Shown here: piece by piece, positions 3,513-52,133 of the stretch | How positions within the stretch are numbered: position 1 is the first letter of the stretch | Layout of the letters: each line of letters begins with the position of its first letter | DNA from: a virus | IMG/VR virus record: IMGVR_UViG_3300048074_000120 | Span: 1-64,000 of that record | Length of the DNA stretch: 64,000 nt | Strand: one strand, 5' to 3' | Position numbers and translations under genes: made by a program | The notes under the pieces: model-generated | Told to the model about the DNA's origin: nothing | The model's database searches: none | The model's input: the letters and a program-made list of their open reading frames with translations, nothing else

Positions 3513-3978
3513 GTCGCTCCTTGACCGGCACGCACAGCATGAATGCCTTGTTGCCGCCGAAGTAGAGTTCAGTAACGTCGCTTACAAACACCTTGCGGCG
3601 CACATCGAGGATGTGGCTCTCCCCATTCGTCATGATGTCGACGATGGAGTCAGCATTCCAGGGGATGATGTACTCCCCCAGGGTGGATACACCAAATTCT
3701 ATCTCTAGCGTGCCGCTGCCCTTGCTGGTTACAAGGTGAAGCTTCCCCTTCCGTTTGGTGCGGAGGAACTGCTTTAGTACATCGAGGTCGGTTGCACGAA
3801 CCTCCACCTGCTCTTGGCCCGTCATGGCCTCTTCGATGGCTTCGATCGCCTCTTCAGGGCTATCGTACAAGTCCGTGTCGTTTGGAATCTCCACAGGCAG
3901 CTTCCACTTGGAGAACTCCTTGAACATCCCAGGATCGATTGCGCCCGATAGGGCCACTGCCTTGGTCAGATCGCTCAT
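3487..3978 (-). CDS. Hypothetical protein
   Basis: ORF track 3487..4056; likely start MSDLTKA at 3978 just after the upstream stop. Confidence 0.7.
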   Translation of the reverse strand: MSDLTKAVALSGAIDPGMFKEFSKWKLPVEIPNDTDLYDSPEEAIEAIEEAMTGQEQVEVRATDLDVLKQFLRTKRKGKLHLVTSKGSGTLEIEFGVSTLGEYIIPWNADSIVDIMTNGESHILDVRRKVFVSDVTELYFGGNKAFMLCVPVKERHGKSVHKS

Positions 3979-8147: not shown

Positions 8148-8544
8148 TGTCTGCTCCTTGCGGTTGTGCTGCCGCCTCTACAGAGAGTCGCTTACGTTCT
8201 TCGAATACGGCAACGAGCAGCGCTTTAGCGATGGCCACTAGGTAACGGGTAAATGCCACGCGATCTGCAACGCCGTTTGTACTCTTCACAAACCCCCACT
8301 TGACGAGAAACTTCAAGTAGGGGACACCAAGTTCGCCGGAGAGCATGACGCGCAGGTCATTCATGAGGCCACGCACCATGCCTTCATCGCTGAAGAAGTC
8401 ATGGCAGAACGGCACCATGAATAGGTCGTCGGTGGAACCAACCCAGTGACAGTTGCCGCAGGTGGCGTTACCTCCTGCCAGCTCCGAGAATTCCAGGTTG
8501 GCACTGCCGCATCGAGGGCAGAACTTGACTTTACCTTCGGTCAC
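8137..8544 (-). CDS. Protein with N-terminal TFIIB-like zinc ribbon
   Basis: FCPRCGSANLEFSELAGGNATCGNC. Confidence 0.65.
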   Translation of the reverse strand: MTEGKVKFCPRCGSANLEFSELAGGNATCGNCHWVGSTDDLFMVPFCHDFFSDEGMVRGLMNDLRVMLSGELGVPYLKFLVKWGFVKSTNGVADRVAFTRYLVAIAKALLVAVFEERKRLSVEAAAQPQGADNAN

Positions 8545-8969
8545 AAGATTCCTCCAATCTGCTTAGACAAACGACGTGACTGAGCACGCTGCTCTTCCTC
8601 CGTCCGTTGAATGACTCGTGTCTTGAGCCGACTCCTGACCTGCTTGGGCATGATGGGCGTGACCTTGAGTGCACCTTTCGAGACCTCGTCCATGAGGCGC
8701 TTGATGTGCTGCTGCCTGTCCTTGTTCTGGACACTCTGCAGGTAAGGCATCTGAGTATCGCGATAGGAGTCAAGAGCTTCTTGTGCCTTCTCTTTGTTGA
8801 CCAGAGCTTGCACAAGAGCGCGCGTGCGCATGTACTCGATCTGATCTTTGCGTATGAGGAGAGCCTGCAATACGTAAGATTGAAGAGACCCCCGAGGTGG
8901 CGGCTCCCTCAGAGTCGCAAGCAGTAGATTTGCCTGCGCCCAGCCCTCGGGGGTCTCTATCCATTTCCC
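8541..8969 (-). CDS. -1 frame extension (gpT-like) of the tail assembly chaperone
   Basis: Frame is open from the GGGAAAT slippery site (8963-8969) to the stop at 8541; closed by TAG four codons upstream of the site; includes track ORF 8541..8870. Confidence 0.75.
   Translation of the reverse strand, partial: GKWIETPEGWAQANLLLATLREPPPRGSLQSYVLQALLIRKDQIEYMRTRALVQALVNKEKAQEALDSYRDTQMPYLQSVQNKDRQQHIKRLMDEVSKGALKVTPIMPKQVRSRLKTRVIQRTEEEQRAQSRRLSKQIGGIL
8884..8969 (-). other. Programmed -1 frameshift signal: G GGA AAT plus perfect 14-bp stem
   Basis: Heptamer in frame one codon before the stop of ORF 8957..10303; inverted repeat AGAGACCCCCGAGG at 8884-8897 / 8945-8958. Confidence 0.8.
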
Positions 8970-10303
8970 AGTGTCTCCGCTCTAAAGAGCTTTCGAACCC
9001 GGATGTCAAACCAGAACCAGTTCACCATCAAACTGGCCATCATGTGGTAATTGAACCGAGCCACGATGGCGTACTTGGCCCAAAACTTCTCCTCGGAGAA
9101 GGCACCCTTATGGTCACGGTAGTCAGGTAGGGGCTTTCGATTGATGGCAGTAACGGCAATGGTGAGCCCCATCAAGTGGTACTTGTCCATCAAGTAGCGG
9201 TCACTGGGACGAAGGCTCACAGCTTCCTCACCGATCATGCGCTTTACGACAAGGTCTTCCTCCGCTGCGTATGATTGAAACTCCGCTTCGAACACCCCAG
9301 GATGTATCGGCACCGTCTGGGACACACGCCCAGTGATGATGAGCTCGCTCAGATCAAGGGGCTTCAATCGAGCCTCGATGATGGCTTTCTGCTCCTCGTT
9401 GTTGAGCATGTCCTTGAAGAGGGCGTTCTTCAATCGGCTCAGCTGGAACTCATCCATGTCATCGAGGAGTTCCTTCTTGGCCTCCTCGGAGAGGGGCTTT
9501 TCAGTAGACCCAGCACCGCCCGCAGGCCCCGCCATAGAGTCCTTGATTTCCTGCTGATCTTGATTGGCTTCGCCAGACTCTGATCGTTGGCGAGCTTGCT
9601 GGAATTCTTCCAGAGCCTTTAGTCCATCGACAGTTTCCGGGCGTAGACCACCCGTGCCGGCGGCAGATGCACCGCGAAGCTGGGCAGGCGAGATGAACTG
9701 CTTATTGCGAATGACCCCGTGCTTGAGCGCCATCGCCGGCTGATTTGCCGCGAACATGCTGCCAGGACCCGTTCTAAAGTCGGGGTCCTGTGTGGCCTGC
9801 TCGGGCAGCATGTCATCCCGTCGCAGGTTTGCCGGGAGCTGCTGCGTTGCCGTGCGTGTTTGGACAGGTGCCTGCTGGTGGGTATCCCCTGCGATGATCC
9901 CCGGGCTGCCATAGTTCAAGGCAGGCTCGTTCCCCAAAGAGGAAAGGACTGAGTCCAGGTTGGGAATGATGCTTGGCTGAGGCATCCCCCGCTGTCGACG
10001 CGCTTGATCTGCCATGGTGCCGTCCGTTGCATCGCTGGCCAGGTGGGGGACAGGCACGTCCGGTCCACCGGCAACTGGCTCGTTGTAGCGAGGAAGTGGC
10101 GCGGGTTGTGATCGCCGGCGCCCCTCAGCCCCCCGTGCGTATTGGAGAGCAACTGGGCTTGCCACTGCCGGATCGATGAAGGGTTGCCGCGGCGCCCGCG
10201 GATCGGGCCCAAGCCGCGTAGGGTTCGCCTGATCCCGGCGTGTGGTGGTGGGGGCAACACCTGGTCCGCCCGGGTCCGTTACACTTCCGACGTCTCTTTT
10301 CAT
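8957..10303 (-). CDS. Tail assembly chaperone (gpG-like) with long P/Q/A-rich N-terminal region
   Basis: C-terminal ~160-aa globular region ends ...TLGNG* on a lambda-G/T-type slippery heptamer; function inferred mainly from the frameshift architecture. Confidence 0.6.
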   Translation of the reverse strand: MKRDVGSVTDPGGPGVAPTTTRRDQANPTRLGPDPRAPRQPFIDPAVASPVALQYARGAEGRRRSQPAPLPRYNEPVAGGPDVPVPHLASDATDGTMADQARRQRGMPQPSIIPNLDSVLSSLGNEPALNYGSPGIIAGDTHQQAPVQTRTATQQLPANLRRDDMLPEQATQDPDFRTGPGSMFAANQPAMALKHGVIRNKQFISPAQLRGASAAGTGGLRPETVDGLKALEEFQQARQRSESGEANQDQQEIKDSMAGPAGGAGSTEKPLSEEAKKELLDDMDEFQLSRLKNALFKDMLNNEEQKAIIEARLKPLDLSELIITGRVSQTVPIHPGVFEAEFQSYAAEEDLVVKRMIGEEAVSLRPSDRYLMDKYHLMGLTIAVTAINRKPLPDYRDHKGAFSEEKFWAKYAIVARFNYHMMASLMVNWFWFDIRVRKLFRAETLGNG

Positions 10304-28623: not shown

Positions 28624-29523
28624 TCAAACTCGACGAGCAGGTTGATACAGGTCAAAAATCCCGGGTATCTCGTTGGCCTCAAAATTGGAGAGGTTCGCAG
28701 GATTCGTGTAGTTTCTCGCAGGAGTAAAGAACAAATTCTTCAAGGCTGTGGAGAAGTGCACAGGAATCGCATACTCGATGTCCAGCTCGGGAACACGATG
28801 TATTTTCACTTCCTGATGAACCGCCGCTCGAGAGTGCTCCGTTTGCGTCTGCTCTTCGACACGCCAACGAATGTTCTCCGCCTCAATGATCAAGTCGTGC
28901 GGCTTGACACTGGGGTAATACCCCATGCGCATCGTTGTATTGTCCTGCTGAGTCTCACCAGGATTGTTATGCTGCTGAGACTTAGTACTTGGATCAACCT
29001 GGATCCATGCCTCAATAGGGTGCATGTACCCGCGGTTGAAGCCCGTGTCGTAGCAAGTCAGACACCCGCTCTTGGTCCTTTTCTCAAGTACCGGATGCCA
29101 GCAATCAGGGCAACGCTGACCAAAAGTACGAACAGGAAGGACGATACATCGTCTCCCTGCGAACTCCTGGAAGAGTACTCGGAGGTGTCGTCGTAGTTCA
29201 ATGGCGACAATGTCTGGTTCTGGTTCATGGGAAACTGGCCCAAAGTCTTTGGTATCACCCGTTGTCTTTTCACGAATACGAACGATGTAGTGGTACGTCC
29301 GCCAACGGTGGAGTACCTGCAGGATGTTATCTACGAAAGAATAACGATCTTCGAAGGGCCCCGCCAATGATTCGTAGGGCCCTTCCTCCGCTTCAGAACG
29401 AAGCACCTCGAACTGAAAGTCCAAGATATCAACTGAATTAGAGGCCACAGTCCAGGACACCTCATGGAAATCGATGTCCAATGAGGTGACCTTGAGATCG
29501 CGTAGTTCGATAGGTACAGGCAT
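28624..29523 (-). CDS. Putative head-closure/neck protein with N-terminal FN3-like domain
   Basis: Beta-sandwich N-terminus (VSW...FEVLRS...F.D...Y.Y.VR); CPDC...CLTC zinc site; located in the neck cluster. Confidence 0.6.
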   Translation of the reverse strand: MPVPIELRDLKVTSLDIDFHEVSWTVASNSVDILDFQFEVLRSEAEEGPYESLAGPFEDRYSFVDNILQVLHRWRTYHYIVRIREKTTGDTKDFGPVSHEPEPDIVAIELRRHLRVLFQEFAGRRCIVLPVRTFGQRCPDCWHPVLEKRTKSGCLTCYDTGFNRGYMHPIEAWIQVDPSTKSQQHNNPGETQQDNTTMRMGYYPSVKPHDLIIEAENIRWRVEEQTQTEHSRAAVHQEVKIHRVPELDIEYAIPVHFSTALKNLFFTPARNYTNPANLSNFEANEIPGIFDLYQPARRV

Positions 29524-29525
29524 TA

Positions 29526-29696
29526 CAGATAGGGGTTCGTTGCTTCCGCTAGACTTCGTAACTTGCTCTTGGCTCCTTCGTACTTCTTCGACAGGCTGAA
29601 CAGCGCGTCCATGCCTTTGTCTTCGAAGGTGCCAATGACCTCTGGCACGCCGCCTCGTCCATAAGCGTCGTGCGCCAGAGCCTTTACTCTAAAGGG
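29526..29696 (-). CDS. -1 frame extension (55 aa) of the 557-aa head protein
   Basis: Open from C CCT TTA to a TAA that overlaps the ATG of the next gene (TAATG 29521-29525); translates RVKALAHDAYGRGG...ATNPYL. Confidence 0.7.
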
Positions 29697-29712
29697 AGTT
29701 GGCGAGCTCCTT
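29640..29712 (-). other. Programmed -1 frameshift signal: AAGGAG-N10-C CCT TTA-N9-stem-loop
   Basis: Heptamer at 29690-29696 one codon before the stop; stem CTCTGGCGC/GTGCCAGAG at 29672-29680 / 29640-29648. Confidence 0.75.
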
Positions 29713-31357
29713 CCGCTACGCCACGAAGGCTGAGCGAGGCCACCTTAGGCTGTGGGCGGCTCATCATCCTGCCGGCGAGAAGACCTCCACCAGCGGCAAT
29801 TCCAGCCGTTGCTAGCGGGTGCGCTTTGGCAAGCCCACCAGCCACATTTCCAAAGGACTTCGCCACTTGACCCATACCGCCGCTCTTGAGTGCGCTGGTT
29901 GCTAAATTCTTGCCTGCGCTCAGTACATCACCGATGCCAGCGGTTTTCGCCTTGGGGGCAAGACTTGGGTGCTTGGCAACGATGGCCTTGTGCAAGGCTG
30001 CACGTTCATCCTGAGTGCTGGCTTTCTTCTCTTTGGCAGGTATCCCACGCGTCTGCATGTACTTCTCGATCTCGTTGGCGTCATTGTGAAACTCAGCGCC
30101 ACTTGGGCGAGGCAACATTGAAAGCGCCCCAACACCAGCTCCACCGACTAGAGCTCCTAGGGCAGGATGCCCTCCAGCTCCACCCAACAATGCACCGCCT
30201 AAACCACCAGCTGCTGCGCCCAACAACCCTCTGTGCAATCGAACTTTATCTGGGTTGTTATCGATGTAATTCCCAGTCTCGCGATTGTCAGCGATATCCG
30301 CCTGCAAGGTATCGGGATGAAGTTGGCCTAAAAACTCATTGGACAATTCGCGATCTTCAGCACCCGGCGTTTTCAATGCACCTTTGAGTGCGCCGATGCC
30401 ACCGCCGATACCTGCCCCCAATAGCCCACCGGCAACTGGTGCCTGCGGGTATTTTCTTCTAACGAGCGCACCAAGCAGCATCCCACCATAGGCGCCAGCG
30501 CCAGCGCCCCGTAAGCCACTGCCCATGGCGGTCCCAATGCGCGAGCGTACGGGGTGTTTCTCCTTGTCCGTCGCTCTACGATCATGGTGCCTCTGCTGAA
30601 GCTCTGTGTTCAATAACTCATCGTAGGCAGTTGCGCCTGCAGCGGCAGTCTTATCCACCTGAATGTTGCCAGTAACTGTCTCTGACGGCTCAGGGGTGTA
30701 GTTCCCTGCGCCCGCGCCTTGTGCATGATCTCCAGCGGGTGCTCGCCCCAAGCTGCGCGTCTCTGGGATTAGTGTATTGAGGACGCTGCCGACTTTCACT
30801 TCGGCCTTGGGCGGCGCTGCTGCCTCTTGCTGCTGCGCCTGCCTGAACTGATTCAACGCAGCGGTCTCTGCCTGCTCATGCGGCTCGTTGCCTTTACCTT
30901 CTGCAGTCTCTTGAGCTTGTGCCTGCTCAATCAGCTGCGCCCCTTGCTCTTCCTTAGCCTCAGGGTTGGCGCCTGTTTCTTGTGATGTGGCAAGCTCGAG
31001 GTCAAGCAAGCGCTGCTTCAACTTGAGCGCATCACGCATCTCATAGAAATCGGTACGGGGGGCTTCCTCCTGCTCGGCGGCGCGGCGCGCGGCGCGCTCT
31101 TCGTTTTCTTGCATATCGATCTGCAAAAGCCCCTTCTCGAGCTCAACGGCCTGCTCAAACAGGGGAGTGCCTTTGTACTTGTCGATCCACTGCTTGTCGT
31201 CAGGGCCATCCGCAGAAGCCAGCTTCGAACTCGGATCACCCGATGCCGCCTTGAGGAGTTCCTCGAGCGGCAGTTGCTTCATCCGGTCAATAAGCTCGCG
31301 AGAAGCCGTCTTTTGCTGATCACGCTTGTATGCAACCGCTACCCATTGGTCAAACAT
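29684..31357 (-). CDS. Putative head-internal/ejection protein with glycine-zipper repeats
   Basis: Likely start ATG 31357 (AGGAG RBS); QKTAS, LKAAS, SKLAS, DKTAA, EKKAS, AKTAG, PKVAS; two GxxxG-rich hairpin modules. Confidence 0.75.
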   Translation of the reverse strand: MFDQWVAVAYKRDQQKTASRELIDRMKQLPLEELLKAASGDPSSKLASADGPDDKQWIDKYKGTPLFEQAVELEKGLLQIDMQENEERAARRAAEQEEAPRTDFYEMRDALKLKQRLLDLELATSQETGANPEAKEEQGAQLIEQAQAQETAEGKGNEPHEQAETAALNQFRQAQQQEAAAPPKAEVKVGSVLNTLIPETRSLGRAPAGDHAQGAGAGNYTPEPSETVTGNIQVDKTAAAGATAYDELLNTELQQRHHDRRATDKEKHPVRSRIGTAMGSGLRGAGAGAYGGMLLGALVRRKYPQAPVAGGLLGAGIGGGIGALKGALKTPGAEDRELSNEFLGQLHPDTLQADIADNRETGNYIDNNPDKVRLHRGLLGAAAGGLGGALLGGAGGHPALGALVGGAGVGALSMLPRPSGAEFHNDANEIEKYMQTRGIPAKEKKASTQDERAALHKAIVAKHPSLAPKAKTAGIGDVLSAGKNLATSALKSGGMGQVAKSFGNVAGGLAKAHPLATAGIAAGGGLLAGRMMSRPQPKVASLSLRGVAEGARQLPLE

Positions 31358-31379
31358 GGTGTTCTCCTGAACTGGCCAA

Positions 31380-31760
31380 CTAGCCTTTGTGAAATGAAGA
31401 GGCTTCTCGCCAAAGACTGGACACCTCTCCCGGTAAAGTCGCACCCGTTGCCGCTCCAAGCGCACCAAGCGCCAAGGTAGAAGCCACGGGATGGGCCTGG
31501 ACCGCTTCACCGAGCGTCAACATGGCTCGGTCCTGCACCAGATCCATGGAGCGTGCGAAGTTGCGCAGCCCCGGTTGCTTCATCTTCTCGTCCTTCGCAG
31601 CAATGCGGTCACGCAGCTTATCTAAAGAAGGACCGTGACCAGAGGCCTCGAGCGCTGTAGCGCCGCCCGCAAGCAAACCCCCAGCGACGCCGCCGAGGAC
31701 GCGCGGGTCGCGCAGGTACTGGCCAATGCCGGCAGACTTTATCTGCCCGCCGCTAAAGGG
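31380..31760 (-). CDS. -1 frame extension (124 aa) of the 368-aa protein
   Basis: Frame opens (after TGA) three codons before C CCT TTA; encodes IKSAGIGQYL and glycine-rich hydrophobic segments; no ATG/GTG before the track's TTG at 31676. Confidence 0.75.
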   Translation of the reverse strand, partial: PFSGGQIKSAGIGQYLRDPRVLGGVAGGLLAGGATALEASGHGPSLDKLRDRIAAKDEKMKQPGLRNFARSMDLVQDRAMLTLGEAVQAHPVASTLALGALGAATGATLPGEVSSLWREASSFHKG

Positions 31761-31778
31761 AGCCGCTGCTCACCCTCC
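31731..31778 (-). other. Programmed -1 frameshift signal: GGAGG-N13-C CCT TTA-N6-hairpin
   Basis: Heptamer at 31754-31760 three codons before the stop; hairpin GGCAGA-TAAAG-TCTGCC. Confidence 0.75.
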
Positions 31779-32845
31779 AGGCGATCCAGCAGCGCGATGA
31801 GGCTGGGATTGCCAAAGGAACCCACCTTGATGGAAACCTGCCCTTGGCGCTTTGCCGTCGGGTCTTGCTCGGGCTGCGACGGTTGACCGTCGGTGTTGGA
31901 CTGCGGACCCGTGCCAGAACCAGCACCTGCTCCACCGGAAGTATCCCCCGGGGGTTGGGGTTGCGTGCCGGGTGCGGCGGCACCGGCCGCCTCCGTAGAA
32001 GCTTCCTGCCCCGGCATGCCTTCAGCGTTCGCTGGTTGACCTTGCTGGTTCAATCCACCCGCGCCTGGACCAGCGGCAGCAGTCGCCTCCTGCCCTTCGG
32101 TCCCTTCTGCACCCTCGGCGCCTGGCGGGGCACCTGGAGCGGCAGCCGCTGGAGGGGTTGGATTCAACCCTTCGGCGGCATTGCCTTCGGCACCGAGCTC
32201 GGGTTCCGTCCCCGGCAGGCCCTGCGCTGCCAGATCGAGGAGCTGACTGCGCAGCTGCTGCTGCTGAATCTTGGCCGAGGTCTCGGTCGTCTTGGCCTGC
32301 AGCGCGCGGTTCTCTGCGTCCACAGCCTGTTGCATAGCTGTGGATGCCGCCATGTTGGCGCTCTGCACCTGCTGCATCGCCGCTTGCTGGGCGATCTGAC
32401 CTTCCTGCTGAACGGCTGAAAGCTGGCTGTCATGCTCAGCCTGCGCTGCCTCGAGCTGCTGCGTGCGCTCCTCGGCCTCCTGTGCCGCTTGCTGCGCCTG
32501 CGCCGTCTCACCCCGGAGTTGCTCGAGCAACTGCTGGTAGTACTCCACTGCCGCTGTATTCTCGGCTTCCAGGCCTTGTGCCTCGTTCGCCAAGTACTCG
32601 GACTGCTCAGGGACTCGAGCCGGTGTTGGCGAAGACATAGACGCCCCTTCTTGAATAGGCTCTTCCTGCTCAGCGGCAATCTTACGAAAGCGCTCGAGCG
32701 GAGATGCCAGGGCGCTCTCCGCCGCCTGCTTGGCCATCGACAGCTGCTCAGCAGAAGGACGCTGCCACGTCTTCATCCCCACAAAGAAGGAAGCTGCCTT
32801 CTCCAGAGGGATCGCTCGGCTCAAACCACGTTGAAATGCGTCCAT
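31739..32845 (-). CDS. Acidic Gln/Ala-rich coiled-coil head protein (scaffold-like)
   Basis: EKAAS, AKQAA, RKIAA; long QQ/AQ coiled coil followed by a disordered G/P/Q tail. Confidence 0.75.
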   Translation of the reverse strand: MDAFQRGLSRAIPLEKAASFFVGMKTWQRPSAEQLSMAKQAAESALASPLERFRKIAAEQEEPIQEGASMSSPTPARVPEQSEYLANEAQGLEAENTAAVEYYQQLLEQLRGETAQAQQAAQEAEERTQQLEAAQAEHDSQLSAVQQEGQIAQQAAMQQVQSANMAASTAMQQAVDAENRALQAKTTETSAKIQQQQLRSQLLDLAAQGLPGTEPELGAEGNAAEGLNPTPPAAAAPGAPPGAEGAEGTEGQEATAAAGPGAGGLNQQGQPANAEGMPGQEASTEAAGAAAPGTQPQPPGDTSGGAGAGSGTGPQSNTDGQPSQPEQDPTAKRQGQVSIKVGSFGNPSLIALLDRLEGEQRLPLAAGR

Positions 32846-33379: not shown

Positions 33380-34063
33380 TCATAACGATGGATCTTTCAA
33401 TTCTTCAGAAACCACATTGTACGATCCGCAATCACGGCAGCGGAAGACAGATCCCCTACCGTGGTTGCCCACGCAGAGTTGCAGATTACTCAAATCATTG
33501 TTGGATGGATCTCCGTCCTTGTGATGAACGGTCTCATCCCGTGTAAGACAGCGCCCTAGGTGCTTGGCCATTACAAGACGATGCTCTAATACATACTTGG
33601 CATCATCTACTTTTGTTTGTGCCATGGAGTAATAGGGATCATCCGGATGAATTCGTACAAGGACGTAACCCTGCTTATGCGCGATACGGCCCCCTTGCCA
33701 TCCGTGATGATCTTCCCCAAATTGAAAACCTGGCCTTCGTAACTTCACACTAGCGGAAGTCATCCTGTAGGCAATTGTTCCTGCTGAGACTCCGTACTCT
33801 TTTGCTAATTCTTCAGTGCTAGCGCCGGCATCATACTTTGCTATCAGCAATTCCAAAGCTGCGTCATCCAATACCAACTTTCTATATCCAGCCCGCCCAC
33901 GCAATGGGATCCCTGCCCGCCTCAACGCATAACGCACAGTTTTCTCATTCACGCCTAATTTACGCGAGATACTAATGAGGCTACTGTTCGCTTGATACAT
34001 CTGAATGACTTTTTCTTCTTGCGATTTACTAAGTTTGTAGTCAGGACCTGTTCTACTTTTCAT
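33380..34063 (-). CDS. HNH homing endonuclease with two N-terminal HTH units
   Basis: SISRKLGVNEKTV and ELAKEYGVSAGTI; YVLEHRLVMAKHLGR...VHHKDGDPSNNDLSNL. Confidence 0.9.
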   Translation of the reverse strand: MKSRTGPDYKLSKSQEEKVIQMYQANSSLISISRKLGVNEKTVRYALRRAGIPLRGRAGYRKLVLDDAALELLIAKYDAGASTEELAKEYGVSAGTIAYRMTSASVKLRRPGFQFGEDHHGWQGGRIAHKQGYVLVRIHPDDPYYSMAQTKVDDAKYVLEHRLVMAKHLGRCLTRDETVHHKDGDPSNNDLSNLQLCVGNHGRGSVFRCRDCGSYNVVSEELKDPSL

Positions 34064-35910: not shown

Positions 35911-35927
35911 ACAACCTTCTCAGAACT

Positions 35928-35963
35928 AAGAAAGGGCGCCGGGCCCACGGCACCGACGCCCTT
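35928..35963 (-). terminator. Rho-independent terminator after major capsid gene
   Basis: AAGGGCGTCGG-N10-CCGGCGCCCTT 11-bp stem followed by TCTT. Confidence 0.7.
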
Positions 35964-35988: not shown

Positions 35989-37107
35989 TTAGAACTGAGA
36001 GACTTGCGGGAACTTCAGCCCATCGCCCACGCGATTGTTGACCGCGCCGAGTGCGTCTTCCGACCTCGGGATGAAGTTAGAAATCAGGCTGTCCGCATCG
36101 GTAGTCGGGTTCGCGTCGCCCGAGTACAGCTCGAGCTTTCGAACTGAAGCGATGTTGATAACCGACATGCCGATGTCTTCCCAGGCCTGGAACGTGATCG
36201 TGTTGGCGATCTTGTCGATGTAGAACTTCGTGTTGTTCAGAACGTAGAACTTCCCGAAGAACTCAGGCTTGGTGAAGATGTAGACGTTGCCAGGACGAAG
36301 AATGTCGGTCTTGATGGTACGAATGTACGAACGACCCAGCAGGGTGTTGTACTTGTACCCGTCGACCGTAGTCTCGGACTGCACGCGGTCACCAAAGTCT
36401 TCCACCGTCCATTGCAGGACGTCGTCCCAATCGACCTCAGTCATGAGCATACGCTCTGACCGCAGTCGGTTCCCGTCCAACATCTTGAAGAGGTTGACGA
36501 GATCGGGGCGCTGAATGGGGAGAACTTCAGCACTGTTGGCCAAGGCATTACGTGCGAGCTCGCCCTTGCGGACGGAGAACTCGACCGTGCTGCCGATGGT
36601 GCCAACGTGCAGGGCTGCCGCCGTGCCACCGTTGGCTTCAGTTTGCAGTGCTTGCACCGCAGCTTCGATGTGGATCGTGAACTCACGGTCCTCGATTTCC
36701 TGGATGTCCTTCACCGAGTTCTCTTCGATGACCTTGGTGATGGGCATTTCGTACGCCAAGAGTTCCTGCTCCGTCTTTTGGAACATCTCAGAACTGATGG
36801 TGTAGAAAGCAACCTCAGCCTTGTCGCCACGGATGAAGCGGGCTTGAGGTGATCCACGGAATGTGATCGCCATGGCGCGAGACTGCGGCTCGATGTCCAC
36901 AATCTTGACCAAGGTGTCGTGGTTGACCGAGCGCTGACAGTCTGCACGCGTGACCTGCTCCGGCGGTATGACTTTGCGGGCAAAGCTCACCTCACGGAGG
37001 CGGTCACGGATGTAGGAACCACCATACTCGGCGATCTTTTCTTTGCCCTCACTCGTACCGAGTTTGGAAGCAAAGAGCTCGTTCATAACACTCGCCGGAA
37101 CTGCCAT
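35989..37107 (-). CDS. Major capsid protein (HK97 fold)
   Basis: 372 aa; AAGGAG RBS, strong C/G-ending codon bias, own terminator; order protease-scaffolds-decoration-MCP-adaptor. Confidence 0.8.
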   Translation of the reverse strand: MAVPASVMNELFASKLGTSEGKEKIAEYGGSYIRDRLREVSFARKVIPPEQVTRADCQRSVNHDTLVKIVDIEPQSRAMAITFRGSPQARFIRGDKAEVAFYTISSEMFQKTEQELLAYEMPITKVIEENSVKDIQEIEDREFTIHIEAAVQALQTEANGGTAAALHVGTIGSTVEFSVRKGELARNALANSAEVLPIQRPDLVNLFKMLDGNRLRSERMLMTEVDWDDVLQWTVEDFGDRVQSETTVDGYKYNTLLGRSYIRTIKTDILRPGNVYIFTKPEFFGKFYVLNNTKFYIDKIANTITFQAWEDIGMSVINIASVRKLELYSGDANPTTDADSLISNFIPRSEDALGAVNNRVGDGLKFPQVSQF

Positions 37108-45366: not shown

Positions 45367-48249
45367 TTAGCCCTGGTAGGTTGGGCCCGAGTACGAGGAC
45401 CAGACACTACCCACAGCGTTGGCATCCTTGCTCGGAGCAATGACGTCAGGACGTGGCTTCGTTATCATGGAAGCTAGGAAACAATAGAGGATCGAATGGA
45501 AGGCATCATCAGTCTTGCCTGCCGTATGCCCGTATTGAATCATGCGAATCTTCTCGTTGTACTCACTGAAGATGTTCAGCATGTCCTGCCCGTAGGGGGC
45601 CTTGAATTCCTTCCAGCGAGGGAACTCGAGAACGGTGCCACGCTTGATGGAATTGAAGATGGCGCTCATCACTTCTGTGCGGTGGGTTATCCAGCGCTGT
45701 AGCTTGTTCTCCCAGCGGACCTTGGCTGACAGTCGAGCTGCGTACTGATAACGCATCACACGCTCACGCCCAAAGCGGCGAACCAAAAAATCGTTTGGGT
45801 AATGGCCACCACCATAGTCGGCGCCAATAATACGGACGTTGTACGCGCGCAGCACTTCTTCGATCTTCTGCAGCTGTCGCTCAGGCTCAGTGTCCTCACC
45901 GACAAAACGGTGAATGTAGAAAATCCGAAACTTACTCCCGATGTACGTGCCAAGACTCAGCACCGTGTAGCTATGCTCGCCCGTATTCCCTTGATAAGAA
46001 ATGCAACCATTGCGCTCAGTAACAATATACCCAGTAGGTACGGCACAACAGTAAACTCTGCCCTTGTACGGGACATGCGCGATCGAATTGGATGGGGTAT
46101 TGAACGAGTAATCCCCCGCCATAGACCACATAACTCTCCACCGTGGTTTTCTATTACCCTCAGCGGGCTTGTGCAAACGAACTACAGCGCGCAGCCCAAT
46201 ACGAATACAAAGCTCCTGGAAATCTTCGCAAAGACCCTTTGAGGTTGAGTAGAAAGCCCCTCCAGTGCAGCCTTCACGGGGATCGTCATAGCCATCCCCA
46301 TCTACCAGAGCCCGAAACAATACCCAAAGCTGCTCTGGCGCTAATTCCAAGAACTCCCGGGGTATACGCTTACTATCACAAGAAACTCCGATACTGTCTG
46401 CGTACCACTGCCAATACTGCTTTCCGTAAATTGTCCAATTCACATCACCAGTACTCGCGTTTGGGAACGTGCTGAACTGCACGCCCATCCGCTCCATGCA
46501 GCTTTGCATCTTCAGGTATGTCTCATAGTTGACAGTTTCGCGCTGAGACATTTTCAGACAGGATGGGCGCCCCTTGTCAAAGCACAGACCGCCCTCAGTA
46601 ATCAAATACCCGAGTAGTTCAAGCCAGTCATTCATTTTGAATGTAACGGCGTCAGAGCCCGAATACCCGGAGCTGACAGGTAAGCCTGGCAATACGAAAT
46701 TTTCCCTAAACTCACCAACCCAATTCAGAGCACCTACGAACTTTACGTTTCCGCCTCGATCTGCGAGTTGCCCAGCTGACTCAGTAACCCACTTCTCACC
46801 TTGTGAAGTCCCAACGCGCATGCGGTGAGTATGCGTCACCATCAAGTCCATCCCGCCCTTAGTTTTGAAATGCAGTAGAGGCTGGTCCCACTCTCGAACA
46901 GTCCTAGCCTTGGGTAGTACGAAGGTCATCTCTCGGCTGTCAGGATCCCACTGAGCTACCTTATCCGCATCCGTCAGATCCCTAAAATACTTGAAGCCAG
47001 TCCCTGTAAGTATCCTCGTCTCTTCGTCATGGCAGCCCCAGTCGATCCCAGCAAAGATCTCCTGACCAAAGCCAAGCGCCTGGTACTTGTGGGCGTCGGC
47101 CATGAACACATTCTCGTTGCAACACGCACGAATCTGAGCATTCGTCAGCGGGCGCAGCCCCGTGTCGTAGGAAATCCCAAGGACTTCGTTGTAGAACTTG
47201 TTTCGACCGTAGTGCTCGAAGTTGTAGAGAAGTTCATCCCAGTCGAGCCACGGCACCATGAGCTGAGGGATGCGGAACCCCTCAAAGGGCGTGTGCACTG
47301 GGTCGTACTCAACGGAGCATGCCCACTGGGCATCGTCCGTCATCGGGAAGATCTGTTTGCCGCACTTCTCACAGATGAGGTGGTGCAGCCCAATGTTCTT
47401 CTCGCCAAGAATGTTCCAGAACCTGCCTGCCTCACCGATGGTGCAGTCGCAAGGGACAACCCACTGGTTCTGCGTGGAGCGATTTGCCCAGTAGTCTTCA
47501 ATAACGTTGTCCAGCGTTAGCGGCGTGCCTGAGTAAACGTATCGCTTCAACTCCTCAGGCGAGTGGGATAGGCACTGCTCGATGACGGGGATGTTATCGG
47601 CAAGGATGTTCTGAATCTCGTCGATATCCAGCATGTGCGCGGGGACGCCGCGGGCACGGTCTGCATTCAAGAAGGCATTACGGAGGGTAATCTTCGACCG
47701 ATTGACGAACTGCTTTTCGAAGATGTTCTGCGAGAGCATGTGCGTTGTGAACGCGCGCAGCACCGGGCTTGTCTCGATGGGCTCCTTGATACGGTCATTC
47801 GAAAAGGTCTTCGTCTGCGTCGCCGACGGACTGACGTAAAGAACTTTGTAAGAAGGGATGAGGCAGCAGTAGCTCAACGAGCGGTTACCAAGCAGCGTGG
47901 ACTTCTCCACCTGGCGACCACACATAAGAAGGATTCTTCGAATCGGCGTGTCGTAGATTTGACGGAGGTGCCGACGGCCTTCGAACGAGAAGTTCTCATA
48001 CCCATCCGGCGTGGGCATGCGAAAGGCATACTCGGTAAACGCCGAGGGAAGTATCTGAGGCATGACGTCGTTTTCGACGTAAGGATCAAACTCATCCTCA
48101 AAGCAGTCCTGGTATTCCTCTGCCTCGGGAACCCAGTAACCCCCAAATTGTATTTTCTGTAGCTCCTCATCTGAAAGCGGTGTACCCTCAGCACCAGTAT
48201 CGTCTGGATGCTCAGAGATGTCTGACGGGTAAACCTCAACGGCGGCCAT
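45367..48249 (-). CDS. terL: Terminase large subunit (GpA-like) containing an intein
   Basis: CGRQVEKST Walker A-like, MLDIDEIQ Walker B, YSGTP, CEKCG zinc site, nuclease GIDWG...DDAFHS. Confidence 0.9.
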   Translation of the reverse strand: MAAVEVYPSDISEHPDDTGAEGTPLSDEELQKIQFGGYWVPEAEEYQDCFEDEFDPYVENDVMPQILPSAFTEYAFRMPTPDGYENFSFEGRRHLRQIYDTPIRRILLMCGRQVEKSTLLGNRSLSYCCLIPSYKVLYVSPSATQTKTFSNDRIKEPIETSPVLRAFTTHMLSQNIFEKQFVNRSKITLRNAFLNADRARGVPAHMLDIDEIQNILADNIPVIEQCLSHSPEELKRYVYSGTPLTLDNVIEDYWANRSTQNQWVVPCDCTIGEAGRFWNILGEKNIGLHHLICEKCGKQIFPMTDDAQWACSVEYDPVHTPFEGFRIPQLMVPWLDWDELLYNFEHYGRNKFYNEVLGISYDTGLRPLTNAQIRACCNENVFMADAHKYQALGFGQEIFAGIDWGCHDEETRILTGTGFKYFRDLTDADKVAQWDPDSREMTFVLPKARTVREWDQPLLHFKTKGGMDLMVTHTHRMRVGTSQGEKWVTESAGQLADRGGNVKFVGALNWVGEFRENFVLPGLPVSSGYSGSDAVTFKMNDWLELLGYLITEGGLCFDKGRPSCLKMSQRETVNYETYLKMQSCMERMGVQFSTFPNASTGDVNWTIYGKQYWQWYADSIGVSCDSKRIPREFLELAPEQLWVLFRALVDGDGYDDPREGCTGGAFYSTSKGLCEDFQELCIRIGLRAVVRLHKPAEGNRKPRWRVMWSMAGDYSFNTPSNSIAHVPYKGRVYCCAVPTGYIVTERNGCISYQGNTGEHSYTVLSLGTYIGSKFRIFYIHRFVGEDTEPERQLQKIEEVLRAYNVRIIGADYGGGHYPNDFLVRRFGRERVMRYQYAARLSAKVRWENKLQRWITHRTEVMSAIFNSIKRGTVLEFPRWKEFKAPYGQDMLNIFSEYNEKIRMIQYGHTAGKTDDAFHSILYCFLASMITKPRPDVIAPSKDANAVGSVWSSYSGPTYQG
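45985..47034 (-). mobile_element. Intein with LAGLIDADG homing endonuclease (350 aa)
   Basis: GIDWG|CHDEETRILT...VTHTHRM...LGYLITEG...LVDGDG...VYCCAVPTGYIVTERNGCISYQGN|TG. Confidence 0.9.
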
Positions 48250-48974: not shown

Positions 48975-49977
48975 CGGCTGGATCCATCCCTTCGAATTCT
49001 GAGGCATCCACACCCTCAATCACATCTTCCTCATCAAGGTCATCCAAGATGTCTTCTTCGGGCTTGGGCTCAGGCTGTACGTTGATAGTATGGTTACCAG
49101 CAGTGAGCTGGCGCAAGGTAGGAACCACATTAGGCGTTGTAGCCACCGTGATTCGTTTCAGGTCTTCCCTCAAATTGGTCTCGGGATTGACCACGGCTTC
49201 CTTCAAACGGGACATCGTCTCGGCGACAGCGCCATATCCTTGAGAAATCTGTGCGCCGTTCTGACCGCCCATGATCGTGCCCTCTAGCGTCTTGAGCGTT
49301 GAGGTAATCATCGTGGCCTGGACGACGTTCTCCAGGTTGAGCCGCTTTGGCATCACGCCAAGGCCAAGCTGTGCGATGACAGAAGAGATGGGGGAAGCTG
49401 GCAGGCGAGCGGCGATTACCCGGGGGTCGTTGTGACGATTCTTGGATAGCGCAGGGAACTGCGTCATGTACTCGCTGCCCTCGGACCCATGATGAAAACC
49501 CCCGGTGTAGCGGAGTTCCAACAGCGAACGCAGCTGTGTGCTGTCGAGCAGGTCAATATTCCAATAGAAGAAACGATAGAGACGGATGGTGTCAGCATCC
49601 GCAACAAATCGATGGCGCACGCGAAGCGCATGCACCACTGCCTCGAAGGGGGCCTGTGCGATCAGAAGCGTCTCTACGAGTTCCCGCCAACGTGGTCGAC
49701 TAAGAATCCTGTTGGCCTTCTGCATTGACTTACCCGGGAGAAAGGCCTGCACCAAGTTCTCACGCAGCAGGTACTGGTACGACTTGATGTGTGACTGATC
49801 CTCTGGGTAGAAAGGCACCGGGGGACGCATCCGGTGCCTCAACCATTGGATGTACCAGTCTCCAAGGTAATCGAGGCCAAGCTCCATGGCCACATCTTGG
49901 ATGTGACCATCGGTGTAGCACTCGGGGTGAATGATCAGATACTTGAAGTAGTTCTCTGCGGGAGAGTGTCGGATCAT
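48958..49977 (-). CDS. Hypothetical protein; candidate terminase small subunit
   Basis: Upstream of terL; HTH-like RELVETLL...VVHAL...IRLY, helical C-half, acidic tail; function is inference only. Confidence 0.4.
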   Translation of the reverse strand: MIRHSPAENYFKYLIIHPECYTDGHIQDVAMELGLDYLGDWYIQWLRHRMRPPVPFYPEDQSHIKSYQYLLRENLVQAFLPGKSMQKANRILSRPRWRELVETLLIAQAPFEAVVHALRVRHRFVADADTIRLYRFFYWNIDLLDSTQLRSLLELRYTGGFHHGSEGSEYMTQFPALSKNRHNDPRVIAARLPASPISSVIAQLGLGVMPKRLNLENVVQATMITSTLKTLEGTIMGGQNGAQISQGYGAVAETMSRLKEAVVNPETNLREDLKRITVATTPNVVPTLRQLTAGNHTINVQPEPKPEEDILDDLDEEDVIEGVDASEFEGMDPADADRD

Positions 49978-52133
49978 CCCTGGAAAGCTATCACCTTCAG
50001 GCCCTCGATGACATCCTCGAGCGCACGAATAGCGCGTTCGATGGAGCCCTCCGGTACTTCACGTAGCCCAATCCTTGAACCAATCAGAAGCTCACAGAGG
50101 CGTCGTTGCGCCTCATCGAGCGTCGGAAGGTAGCCAACATACGTCGCCAAGTTCTCAGGATTGATGAAGCCGAGGGAGAGCACGGTGTCAACGGCAACCG
50201 GGTCCGTAATGGCTGCCGCTTCTTTCCACAGGCGGTGCCTAAATACCGGCGTTGACTCAAGAAATGCCTGAGCCGCCGTGTAACTCTCTCCACGCAGTTC
50301 AGACGCCAGCTTCAACTGATGCCCCACCCGCACGGTCTCCACACGGCTTGCGCCGGCGCAGGCCGAGGCGAGCTTCTGCTGGGCATAGCTGGGGTTGGCC
50401 CCAAGACCTACCAAAACAAATAGCGCACGGTCCTGGGTCAAGAACTCACGATCATCCGAAGCCAACTTCTCCACAGGAAAGCCGCGCAACGAGAAACAGT
50501 CGGCGCCGCCCGAGCGAACTTCCACCGAGGCAAGCTGACGCTGCACGGACGCCGTCTTACCCACATCCGCAGGGGACTCCGCCAATGAAATCTCAGCAGC
50601 CTGGTCCAAAGGGATCCAGCACCATCCGTCAGGGATGATCATCGTCCCATCAACGCCGACCACCGTCGCGACATAGGGCTGCACGCTCACCTGCACCTGC
50701 CGGCCATCAAAGGTCTCCGCCTGAAACCTGGGCTGATCATCCGTGCCTGGGCTCTGCATCGTGGCGCCAAGGGTCAACGGGAGCGTTGCGCACGGAACGC
50801 CACCGGCATCCGTGAAGAACACTCCGTGACCACTAGCCTGCCCGGCCGGCACTGAACCGGGAGGAGTGAACTCACCCACGGGCACGCCGGAGATATCCGA
50901 CTGCACCGCGGCATGCACACCATCGGTAAAGAGCGCGATCGGCAATGAGCTGCCATCAGTGTCGAGGAGATTAGGCAGCACCATGCCCGTCAGCATCTCA
51001 CCGTCGACGGCCTGCACCTGGTACATCCCCGGGGCCGAAATGGGACCAGCACCGGTGCCAAGAGGCGCACCCATGCCCGCTTCCGACACCCCTTCGCCGT
51101 CTGCCATCGTCACAGCGCCGGACATATCTGCGGCAAGCGCCACTTTGCCCCCGTAGCGTCGAACCACTTCACCACGATCTACGGTTTCAGACGTGGGCTC
51201 CCACGCATGATGACTCGCCGTCTTGACGGAGTAACCTTCAGCGAGCTTGACGACCTGCGTCACGCTAGGACGAATGTGGCTTTGTAGCGCTGAGGCTCGC
51301 TTCTCAATCGTGGTTGGAGTCGCAGAGCCAATACGCAAAATGGATCCGTGCGCGGCAACGTTCTCGGCAAAGGCCAACTTGATGTTGTGGTCACGAAGGC
51401 TCTCTTTGAACGCCTGCAAGTCAGTCACATTTGCCGTAGGCAGCACGGCATCCAGGATGGACGCAGTCTTGGTGGGCGACTTAGCCACCGCGGCATCTAG
51501 CGCAGCCAAGCGCATTCCGTGCAGCTGCTTTGATGAAGTGGCGGCTGCCGTCTTCTCAGACGAGCACTCACTTTCTAGCCATTGCTCGAGCGAAGCCGTC
51601 TTTGACGCGGTCTTTCCACCCATACCGGCACCAGCGGCAACACCGCCTCCGCCGAAGCCATAGTTCTGGCGGTAAGGCGGGTACAACTGCCCAATCATGG
51701 ACTGGTCGCCGGGGGTCTTACTGGTGACGTCAAAGTTCTGCGGGCGGAACATCGCTTGGCGCAAGCGCCCTTCCGTCAACGGCAGTGCCCGCGCATCATC
51801 CGTGAGAACTACATCAAACGGAGAGAGTTTTCCGTCCTTGATGATGACAGGAATACGCGCCGTGCGAATCCCCGCTGCCTTGAGCTGCTCTGGAGGAGAT
51901 GTCATTGGAGCCTCTGTCTTGTTCGTCACTTCAACGTGACCAAGGCCATACCCGCGCTCCCCATCAACCGTCTCCATGTTCACGTGCATGTCGAAGTCGG
52001 CCAAGTAGGGGACCTGCTTATATAGCTCCTGCAGCACAGCATCAATCCACTGATTGGGATCTTCCGGCAGCGCGGTCTCCGCAGCTGTCTTTTCAAATAC
52101 AAGTTGCGGAACGGTGTAGAGTGCCTGAGTCAT
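49974..52133 (-). CDS. Large putative head-internal protein
   Basis: 719 aa with about 16 K-x-A motifs, mostly KTAS/KTAA/KLAS. Confidence 0.75.
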   Translation of the reverse strand: MTQALYTVPQLVFEKTAAETALPEDPNQWIDAVLQELYKQVPYLADFDMHVNMETVDGERGYGLGHVEVTNKTEAPMTSPPEQLKAAGIRTARIPVIIKDGKLSPFDVVLTDDARALPLTEGRLRQAMFRPQNFDVTSKTPGDQSMIGQLYPPYRQNYGFGGGGVAAGAGMGGKTASKTASLEQWLESECSSEKTAAATSSKQLHGMRLAALDAAVAKSPTKTASILDAVLPTANVTDLQAFKESLRDHNIKLAFAENVAAHGSILRIGSATPTTIEKRASALQSHIRPSVTQVVKLAEGYSVKTASHHAWEPTSETVDRGEVVRRYGGKVALAADMSGAVTMADGEGVSEAGMGAPLGTGAGPISAPGMYQVQAVDGEMLTGMVLPNLLDTDGSSLPIALFTDGVHAAVQSDISGVPVGEFTPPGSVPAGQASGHGVFFTDAGGVPCATLPLTLGATMQSPGTDDQPRFQAETFDGRQVQVSVQPYVATVVGVDGTMIIPDGWCWIPLDQAAEISLAESPADVGKTASVQRQLASVEVRSGGADCFSLRGFPVEKLASDDREFLTQDRALFVLVGLGANPSYAQQKLASACAGASRVETVRVGHQLKLASELRGESYTAAQAFLESTPVFRHRLWKEAAAITDPVAVDTVLSLGFINPENLATYVGYLPTLDEAQRRLCELLIGSRIGLREVPEGSIERAIRALEDVIEGLKVIAFQG

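Follow-up and report, generated by a model that had tools for sequence, protein, structure and literature searches.

Programmed -1 ribosomal frameshifting in the late genes of phages is a known kind of event and, to our knowledge, programmed frameshifts in phage structural genes have rarely been documented beyond the tail chaperones and a few capsid genes. Here we describe a pair of candidate -1 frameshift sites at the 3' ends of two adjacent genes, gene 1 and gene 2, in the IMG/VR record IMGVR_UViG_3300048074_000120, an uncultivated virus genome of 188,971 bp of which the window is the first 64 kb; both genes lie on the minus strand. Each gene ends shortly after the heptamer C CCU UUA, and in each the -1 frame runs on into a C-terminal extension (extension 1 and extension 2). 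We consider it highly probable, from the comparison of related loci set out below, that both sites are programmed -1 frameshifts.

The E. coli dnaX gene, source of the tau and gamma proteins, offers a close mechanistic parallel, a slippery heptamer that a Shine-Dalgarno (SD)-like element precedes by approximately 10-13 nucleotides (nt) and a stem-loop follows within a few nt. The resemblance extends to relatives of the window (an in-frame clade at site 1 and the lineage L003 at site 2) in which the 0 frame encodes the long protein and a slip would lead into a stop within a few codons. Unlike dnaX, the heptamer here is C CCU UUA rather than A AAA AAG, the proteins are unrelated, a slip in the window would produce the long form, and the structure downstream is small and lacks covariation. 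With the tail-assembly chaperones lambda G/GT and P2 E/E+E' the locus shares a conserved, here predicted, -1 slip near the 3' end of a virion-module gene that adds a start-less C-terminal domain, with the long form as a minor product at a set ratio; it differs from them in having no family match, in an upstream part of 368 amino acids (aa), in a second site with the same heptamer in the next gene, in some relatives with fused frames or reversed polarity, and in proteins that share motifs with the head-gene block. The 10A/10B pair of T7 and T3 and other structural C-terminal extensions likewise combine a late-gene -1 shift shortly before the stop with a minor extended form, whereas the genes here do not encode the major capsid protein, the sites are two in tandem and extension 1 is a hydrophobic glycine-zipper domain. 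The heptamer CCCUUUA is the -1 site of Giardia lamblia virus gag-pol (PMC8230311); the likeness is confined to the heptamer, as this is a eukaryotic double-stranded RNA virus with a different ribosome and stimulator and no SD. What is new is the tandem use of one unusual heptamer by two adjacent virion genes other than the capsid gene, the retention of the two sites throughout a clade of uncultivated ~190-kb phages, and natural flips of polarity at both sites; the papers searched held no matching description.

Both genes end in CTC CCT TTA with an X XXY YYZ heptamer in phase (Table 1), as a first-pass annotation made from the letters of this DNA had reported. It had placed the stops one to three codons further on, the sole statement about the sequence that does not hold: gene 2 ends CTC CCT TTA GAG TAA, with one sense codon after TTA, and gene 1 ends CTC CCT TTA GCG GCG GGC AGA TAA, with four. 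The upstream GGAGG and AAGGAG lie at the distances it gave, the stems that it put 6 and 9 nt downstream begin at 6 and 9-10 nt, and the -1 frames have the lengths and ends that it described, extension 1 stopping 22 nt before the ATG of gene 2 and extension 2 overlapping the ATG of the following gene (TAATG). The K-x-A-G-I-G signature that it read in this region is also present in the three forms listed (KSAGIG, KTAGIG and KQAGIG). At site 1 a TGA closes the -1 frame three codons upstream of the heptamer, so the change of frame is confined to about 10 codons; at site 2 the frames overlap by ~20 codons. The 0-frame stop of gene 1 (TAA, 31741-31739) is inside the site 1 hairpin, which also overlaps the -1-frame Lys codon of K-S-A-G. 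On either strand of the whole genome CTCCCTTTAG occurs at these two sites only. CCCTTTA itself has 10 copies on both strands, and only in two of the 10, sites 1 and 2, a long upstream 0 frame and an early 0-frame stop are combined with a long -1 frame.

Table 1. Coordinates of the two candidate frameshift sites and of the associated and neighbouring genes in the window.
Feature	Coordinates	Strand or block	Description
Gene 1, 0 frame	31739..32845	(-)	368 aa
SD-like GGAGG	31774..31778	(-)	13 nt upstream of site 1 heptamer
Site 1 slippery heptamer C CCT TTA	31754..31760	(-)	phase X XXY YYZ
Site 1 hairpin GGCAGA-TAAAG-TCTGCC	31731..31747	(-)	6-bp stem, begins 6 nt downstream of heptamer
Extension 1, -1 frame	31383..31754	(-)	124 aa, SGGQIKSAGIG...; predicted long form 488 aa
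Gene 2, 0 frame	29684..31357	(-)	557 aa; N-terminal QQKTASRE motif, several glycine-zipper modules
SD-like AAGGAG	29707..29712	(-)	10 nt upstream of site 2 heptamer
Site 2 slippery heptamer C CCT TTA	29690..29696	(-)	0-frame stop TAA at 29686-29684
Possible stem-loop CUCUGGCGC ... GCGUGCCAGAG	29640..29682	(-)	begins 9-10 nt downstream of site 2 heptamer
Extension 2, -1 frame	29526..29690	(-)	55 aa, RVKALAHDAY...NPYL; predicted long form 611 aa
Next gene after extension 2	28624..29523	(-)	299 aa, CxxC...CxxC, highly conserved, homologous to Arash virion protein gp234
Major capsid protein	35989-37107	same leftward block	PHROG 2522
Large terminase	45367-48249	same leftward block	960 aa

In the mechanism that we propose, a share of the ribosomes decoding C CCU UUA on the late mRNA would slip back by one base, with tRNA-Pro re-pairing from CCU to CCC and tRNA-Leu from UUA to UUU. 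Pairing of the ribosomal anti-SD with GGAGG (13 nt, site 1) or AAGGAG (10 nt, site 2) would assist the slip, and the small downstream stem perhaps adds to the stimulation. Ribosomes that stay in frame would stop four codons (site 1) or one codon (site 2) later, giving proteins of 368 and 557 aa, while those that slip would append 124 or 55 residues and give the long forms of 488 and 611 aa, the sizes that the first-pass annotation had already given. In E. coli, C_CC.U_UU.A belongs to a set of 18 heptamers on which shifting exceeds 0.1% even in the absence of stimulators and which genes avoid, and SD-like stimulators are effective 6-17 nt upstream of the heptamer (PMC4066793), a range into which both elements fall; the SD of dnaX lies 10 nt upstream of its heptamer (PMC5009743). 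The phage's own start sites carry AGGAG-type SDs, so the host ribosome should recognise such elements within a gene, and the two upstream elements are likely to be dnaX-like stimulators. That slipping takes place, and at what rate, is our inference.

Three other sources of the signal were considered and rejected. Transcriptional slippage would have runs of only 3 nt to act on, and contigs from RNA libraries contain no indel (such contigs drop rare variants); a shifty tRNA encoded by the phage is set aside because the 188,971-bp genome has no tRNA gene; and a DNA-level signal in CTCCCTTTAG does not account for a codon phase that is always the same or for the other-frame stop that accompanies the heptamer in the flipped lineages.

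Syntenic loci were gathered from JGI, ENA, Logan and IMG/VR, with homologues of gene 2 found on contigs of 186-200 kb from many samples. Eight diverged lineages, from independent assemblies, are of the frameshift type (WIN, L025, L002, L004/6, L023/24, L003/5, L020/28/29 and L021/22). At site 1 the phase of CCCTTTA is the same in all eight; the 0 frame stops 1-4 codons further on, and a stop three codons before the heptamer closes the -1 frame. At site 2 seven of the eight have CCCTTTA, one codon and a stop, and the remaining one has CCCTTTT. When the four lineages of the in-frame clade are included, the site 1 heptamer is CCCTTTA in 11/12 lineages and CCCTTTC in the other, and GGAGG, which also encodes a conserved Leu-Glu, stands exactly 13 nt before it in 11/12 (GGGGG in L007). 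The SD-like element of site 2 is AGGAG, AAGGGG or GGAGG at 10-13 nt in 5/8 lineages and a weaker AAGGG(A/C/T) in 3/8. The codon that precedes the heptamer varies in the residue it encodes (CTC, TCC, GCC) and always has C as its third base; TTA is the rarest Leu codon of the phage (4.7%), CCT makes up 24% of its Pro codons, and synonymous divergence (dS) between lineages is mostly above 1. Taken together, these figures argue that the invariance of the heptamer is selected at the nucleotide level.

Selection is also evident beyond the sites. In pairwise comparisons of the closer lineages, the ratio of nonsynonymous to synonymous divergence (dN/dS) lies within 0.07-0.26 in extension 1 and 0.02-0.2 in extension 2, with changes at third positions dominating, which indicates that both -1 frames code for protein under purifying selection. 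The checks that the first-pass annotation had looked for in related phages thus both came out in its favour, the heptamer being kept in 8/8 lineages at site 1 and 7/8 at site 2 and dN/dS among close lineages lying between 0.02 and 0.26. Farther afield, 31 homologues of extension 1 were found among 1.84 billion protein representatives. The stronger matches are mostly the C terminus of single-ORF (open reading frame) proteins of roughly 400-860 aa; in the 445-637-aa single-ORF homologues that were retrieved the N-terminal part aligns with gene 1, and one of them (P0054) is exactly 488 aa long. Since gene 1 and extension 1 make up a single ORF in distant relatives, the long form corresponds to a real protein. 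One stand-alone hit, P0058, is on a contig of only 531 bp, which is uninformative.

The same comparisons bear on whether the extensions could instead be separate small genes, read from weak or non-canonical starts of their own or by termination and reinitiation, with the heptamer conserved for some other reason. Gene callers do annotate the extensions of relatives as ORFs of 49-128 aa, four lineages have a GTG 15-18 nt past the heptamer of site 1 and three have one 9 nt past that of site 2, and L003/L005 have GGAGG-N7-ATG in the -1 frame, with the ATG two codons before the site 1 heptamer. Where the four lineages have GTG at site 1, however, WIN, L025, L003 and L004 have ATA or GTA, and no start codon is conserved in either extension across the eight frameshift-type lineages compared. 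The first-pass annotation had found no ATG or GTG in extension 1 ahead of a TTG; there is in fact none anywhere in the window's extension 1, and that TTG, at +84 nt, is its sole start-like codon. Furthermore, the -1-frame residues upstream of every candidate start are conserved, the distant homologues are single ORFs, and separate genes would leave unexplained the invariant rare TTA and the GGAGG-N13 spacing in lineages that have no second ORF. We judge separate expression to be very unlikely.

Sequencing or assembly indels, or recent decay of genes that were once fused, would also break the frames, and such an origin would suit both the distant relatives that carry gene 1 and extension 1 in one frame and the lineage with an extra T at site 2. 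It is hard to reconcile with an offset that is identical, and at the same heptamer, in eight lineages whose samples and assemblers differ, with the independent contigs of two further DNA samples and two metatranscriptomic libraries from other bioreactor material, which span both heptamers without an indel, and with strong purifying selection on both downstream frames, whose synonymous sites are saturated. We give this explanation practically no weight.

The most telling feature, absent from the first-pass annotation, is the reversed polarity of the sites in sister lineages. A tree of the 299-aa neighbour resolves three clades: the frameshift type (support 99/98), the in-frame clade of four lineages (support 86/84; L007, L010, L032 and L033) and a clade with a plain fusion (support 100/99). 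In the in-frame clade gene 1 and extension 1 form one ORF that retains the in-phase heptamer (CCCTTTA in 3/4, CCCTTTC in L033), and the -1 frame meets a TAA after 1-4 sense codons. This TAA arises from a T at the third base of the codon that precedes the Lys of K-x-A-G, present in 4/4 lineages although four different residues are encoded (GGT, CCT, TCT and GAT), and a slip here would yield the short form in the manner of dnaX. At site 2, two independent assemblies, L003 (from ENA) and L005 (from IMG/VR), have the sequence CCCTTTTAG with an inserted T (CCCTTTT), which brings extension 2 into frame (P0009, ...QLPFRVK...) and leaves the -1 frame at a TAG immediately. The third clade has its plain fusion, and more distant relatives have no extension 2 at all; it follows that gene 1 was long, and gene 2 short, in the older state.

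Less weight falls on the downstream hairpins. The site 1 stem is retained in 7/8 frameshift-type lineages; the site 2 stems mostly do no better than shuffled sequences, with z-scores for the most part between -0.8 and -1.7 (-1.0 in the window and -3.5 in L004), and an RNAalifold consensus across the site 2 loci gave no common stem. The first-pass claim of two programmed -1 sites, each with a short and a long product, is supported by the heptamer, by the selection on the extensions, by the lack of a conserved start codon, by the fused relatives and by SD-like elements at fixed spacing. It goes further than the data with its hairpins, which are present but show no covariation and are not shared by all lineages, and with its head or ejection role and fixed ratio of forms, which are putative.

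Several observations weigh against programmed frameshifting, or against parts of the interpretation given here. The site 1 stem lies in conserved codons and has no compensatory changes, and the site 2 stems differ between lineages, with another pairing partner in L003, L020 and L021. The four in-frame lineages are one clade, and their shared features do not amount to four independent events. No slippery site was found near the junction in the plain-fusion clade, from which it follows that the short form of gene 1 is not needed universally. The ATG of L003/L005 described above makes an independent start of extension 1 possible in that lineage, and an amber TAG interrupts extension 1 in L020 (ENA; 3640-3655) and, at the same position, in L029 (JGI). 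Finally, the evidence for the head-interior location and the protease, both discussed below, is the enrichment of a motif, from which we infer them. As a separate observation, L028 (2009-2024) has CAG where L020 and L029 have the TAG, and this lineage carries a natural nonsense polymorphism within the frameshift-dependent domain.

Gene 1 has a conserved N-terminal motif (IPLEKAASFF), continues through a Gln-rich, coiled-coil-like part and a Pro/Gly/Ala-rich part of low complexity, and closes with VSIKVG...EGEQRLPL; extension 1 consists of two hydrophobic glycine-zipper segments flanking a charged helical part; and the gene 2 proteins of relatives are 501-803 aa long. PHROG recognises neither of the two genes nor extension 1, and Pfam gives only sub-threshold matches (ISG65-75 for gene 1 and a DUF883_C glycine zipper for gene 2) and none for extension 1. 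The protein atlas returned a weak glycine-zipper lead for gene 2, and neither it nor profile searches of the PDB provided a usable lead otherwise. Most neighbours of the two genes also have no PHROG or Pfam family, and AlphaFold models of the 172-aa and 299-aa neighbours are too poor for structure searches (predicted local distance difference test scores, pLDDT, of 48 and 37). Searches of 50,697 phage records gave no match at the DNA level and none with the gene 2 and extension 1 proteins, and an initial single-protein scan of viral contigs was likewise negative. The closest isolates are the orphan myovirus Salmonella phage Arash (capsid identity 28%) and three Vibrio phages. Arash gp233, gp234 and gp236, all found in virions by mass spectrometry (PMC10585845), are matched by the 172-aa, 299-aa and 1048-aa proteins encoded next to the two genes.

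With virion neighbours of this kind, and a position downstream of the major capsid gene, the pair could be a tail-assembly chaperone with its frameshift (gene 1) and a tape measure (gene 2), in which case the frameshifts would be real and the genes tail rather than head genes. A frameshift near the 3' end and, after it, a protein that is long, hydrophobic, rich in Gly and variable in length fit the order of such genes, which Xu, Hendrix and Duda in 2004 reportedly described as the usual one. However, gene 1 has 368 aa compared with about 100-150 aa for G-type chaperones, no PHROG family covers the pair, the two sub-threshold Pfam matches are unrelated to chaperones or tape measures, and one clade is solely fused and without a slippery site. 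A length of 501-803 aa for gene 2, in lineages whose 299-aa neighbour is 71-88% identical, is also hard to accept in a ruler of tail length, and both proteins carry an N-terminal (E/Q)K(T/A)A(S) motif that recurs in proteins of the 29.5-52.2 kb block. We thus disfavour the tail reading and think it unlikely.

The motif would fit a place in the head. KTA[GSAT] occurs 16 times in the 7,197 residues encoded by the 29.5-52.2 kb block compared with eight times in 51,546 residues elsewhere, an enrichment of ~14-fold (odds ratio 14, p = 7e-10), and the enriched block holds the capsid gene and, adjoining, the terminase gene. Copies are often found at residues 12-30 of the block proteins, and the (E/Q)K(T/A)A(S) copies of gene 1 and gene 2 are among those recurring near N termini. 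The 719-aa protein encoded at 49974-52133 has seven copies of KTA[GSAT]. In frameshifted and fused homologues alike, K-(T/S/V)-A-G directly precedes the extension 1 domain. K-T-A-(G/S/A/T) looks like the site of a maturation protease, and from its distribution both proteins would be located in the head interior, with N-terminal propeptides cut by a prohead protease at K-(T/S)-A; matching of neighbour families did not identify a protease. In such a head-interior arrangement extension 1, which follows K-S-A-G six residues past the junction, would be delivered in sub-stoichiometric amounts on its carrier and then released. The internal proteins of T4, with their capsid-targeting sequence, and the inner-body proteins of phiKZ similarly have short conserved N-terminal segments that end in a recurring motif. 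The protease consensus is L/I-x-E in T4 and S/A/G-x-E in phiKZ, from both of which the K-T-A-(S/A/G) motif here differs, and cleavage here is putative.

A profile comparison finds a weak likeness between extension 1 and gene 2 residues 299-428 (hhalign probability 64%, E = 7e-5), and a BLASTP comparison of the two proteins was not significant; extension 1 and the middle of gene 2 may possibly be copies of a duplicated module. We also note that 31383-31754 and 29687-30460 share the succession of a glycine zipper, a charged helix and a glycine zipper with His-Pro.

A joint reading of these elements, which we put forward tentatively and regard as possible but rather doubtful, is that an ancient cassette of flipping polarity doses a glycine-zipper cargo and has a second copy in gene 2. 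The cassette would consist of GGAGG-N13-C CCU UUA followed by an other-frame stop on the K-x-A-G Lys codon, and lineages would have flipped its polarity through one-base indels while keeping the cassette itself, a change that would be nearly neutral only if slipping were close to 50%, as in dnaX. In this way a set share of the carriers would be loaded with the membrane-active glycine-zipper domain, a prohead protease would free the domain inside the capsid and it would be ejected with the DNA. The neighbouring gene would subsequently have gained a second copy of the same cassette.

The genome has a G+C content of 55%, and the twin-site region is part of a long leftward gene block on its minus strand. 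Between the capsid stop (35989) and the next start (35910) there is a conserved, G+C-rich hairpin followed by TTTCTT (GGGCGTCGGTGCC...GGCCCGGCGCCCTTTCTT, ~35915-35960), present in the corresponding upstream region of the loci that reach that far. It is terminator-like and may place the downstream genes, including gene 1 and gene 2, at lower expression. Homing-type endonuclease genes interrupt the otherwise syntenic module at varying positions (window 33380-34063; L004:3384-4001; L023:590-1543), those of the window, L020, L023 and L032 being of the HNH kind, and L004 having an Endonuclease_7 gene that separates extension 1 from gene 2. The large terminase matches LAGLIDADG_3 weakly over residues 645-704, which suggests an intein or an endonuclease insertion. 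Elsewhere in the window another candidate -1 site, G GGA AAT at 8963-8969, is found at the end of a 448-aa ORF (8957-10303; the second ORF is at 8541-8870); PHROG has no family for either of these ORFs. Many bioreactor metagenomes contain DNA nearly identical to that of the record, as do metatranscriptomic libraries of 2025 and, at smaller shares, wastewater libraries; the phage seems to recur in reactors of this type.

The two sites correct how the genes are annotated in an entire clade of phages of roughly 190 kb, recovered from metagenomes of bioreactors, wastewater and other environments, in which four ORFs are read as two genes with two products each. Relatives with an in-frame fusion, a reversed polarity or a lost site are natural 'mutants' that show the worth of each isoform, and the loci provide compact cassettes for studying how C CCU UUA with an upstream SD performs in bacteria. 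If the reading of the extensions as loaded cargo is true, recoding in these phages would be tied to the stoichiometry of proteins packed in the head.

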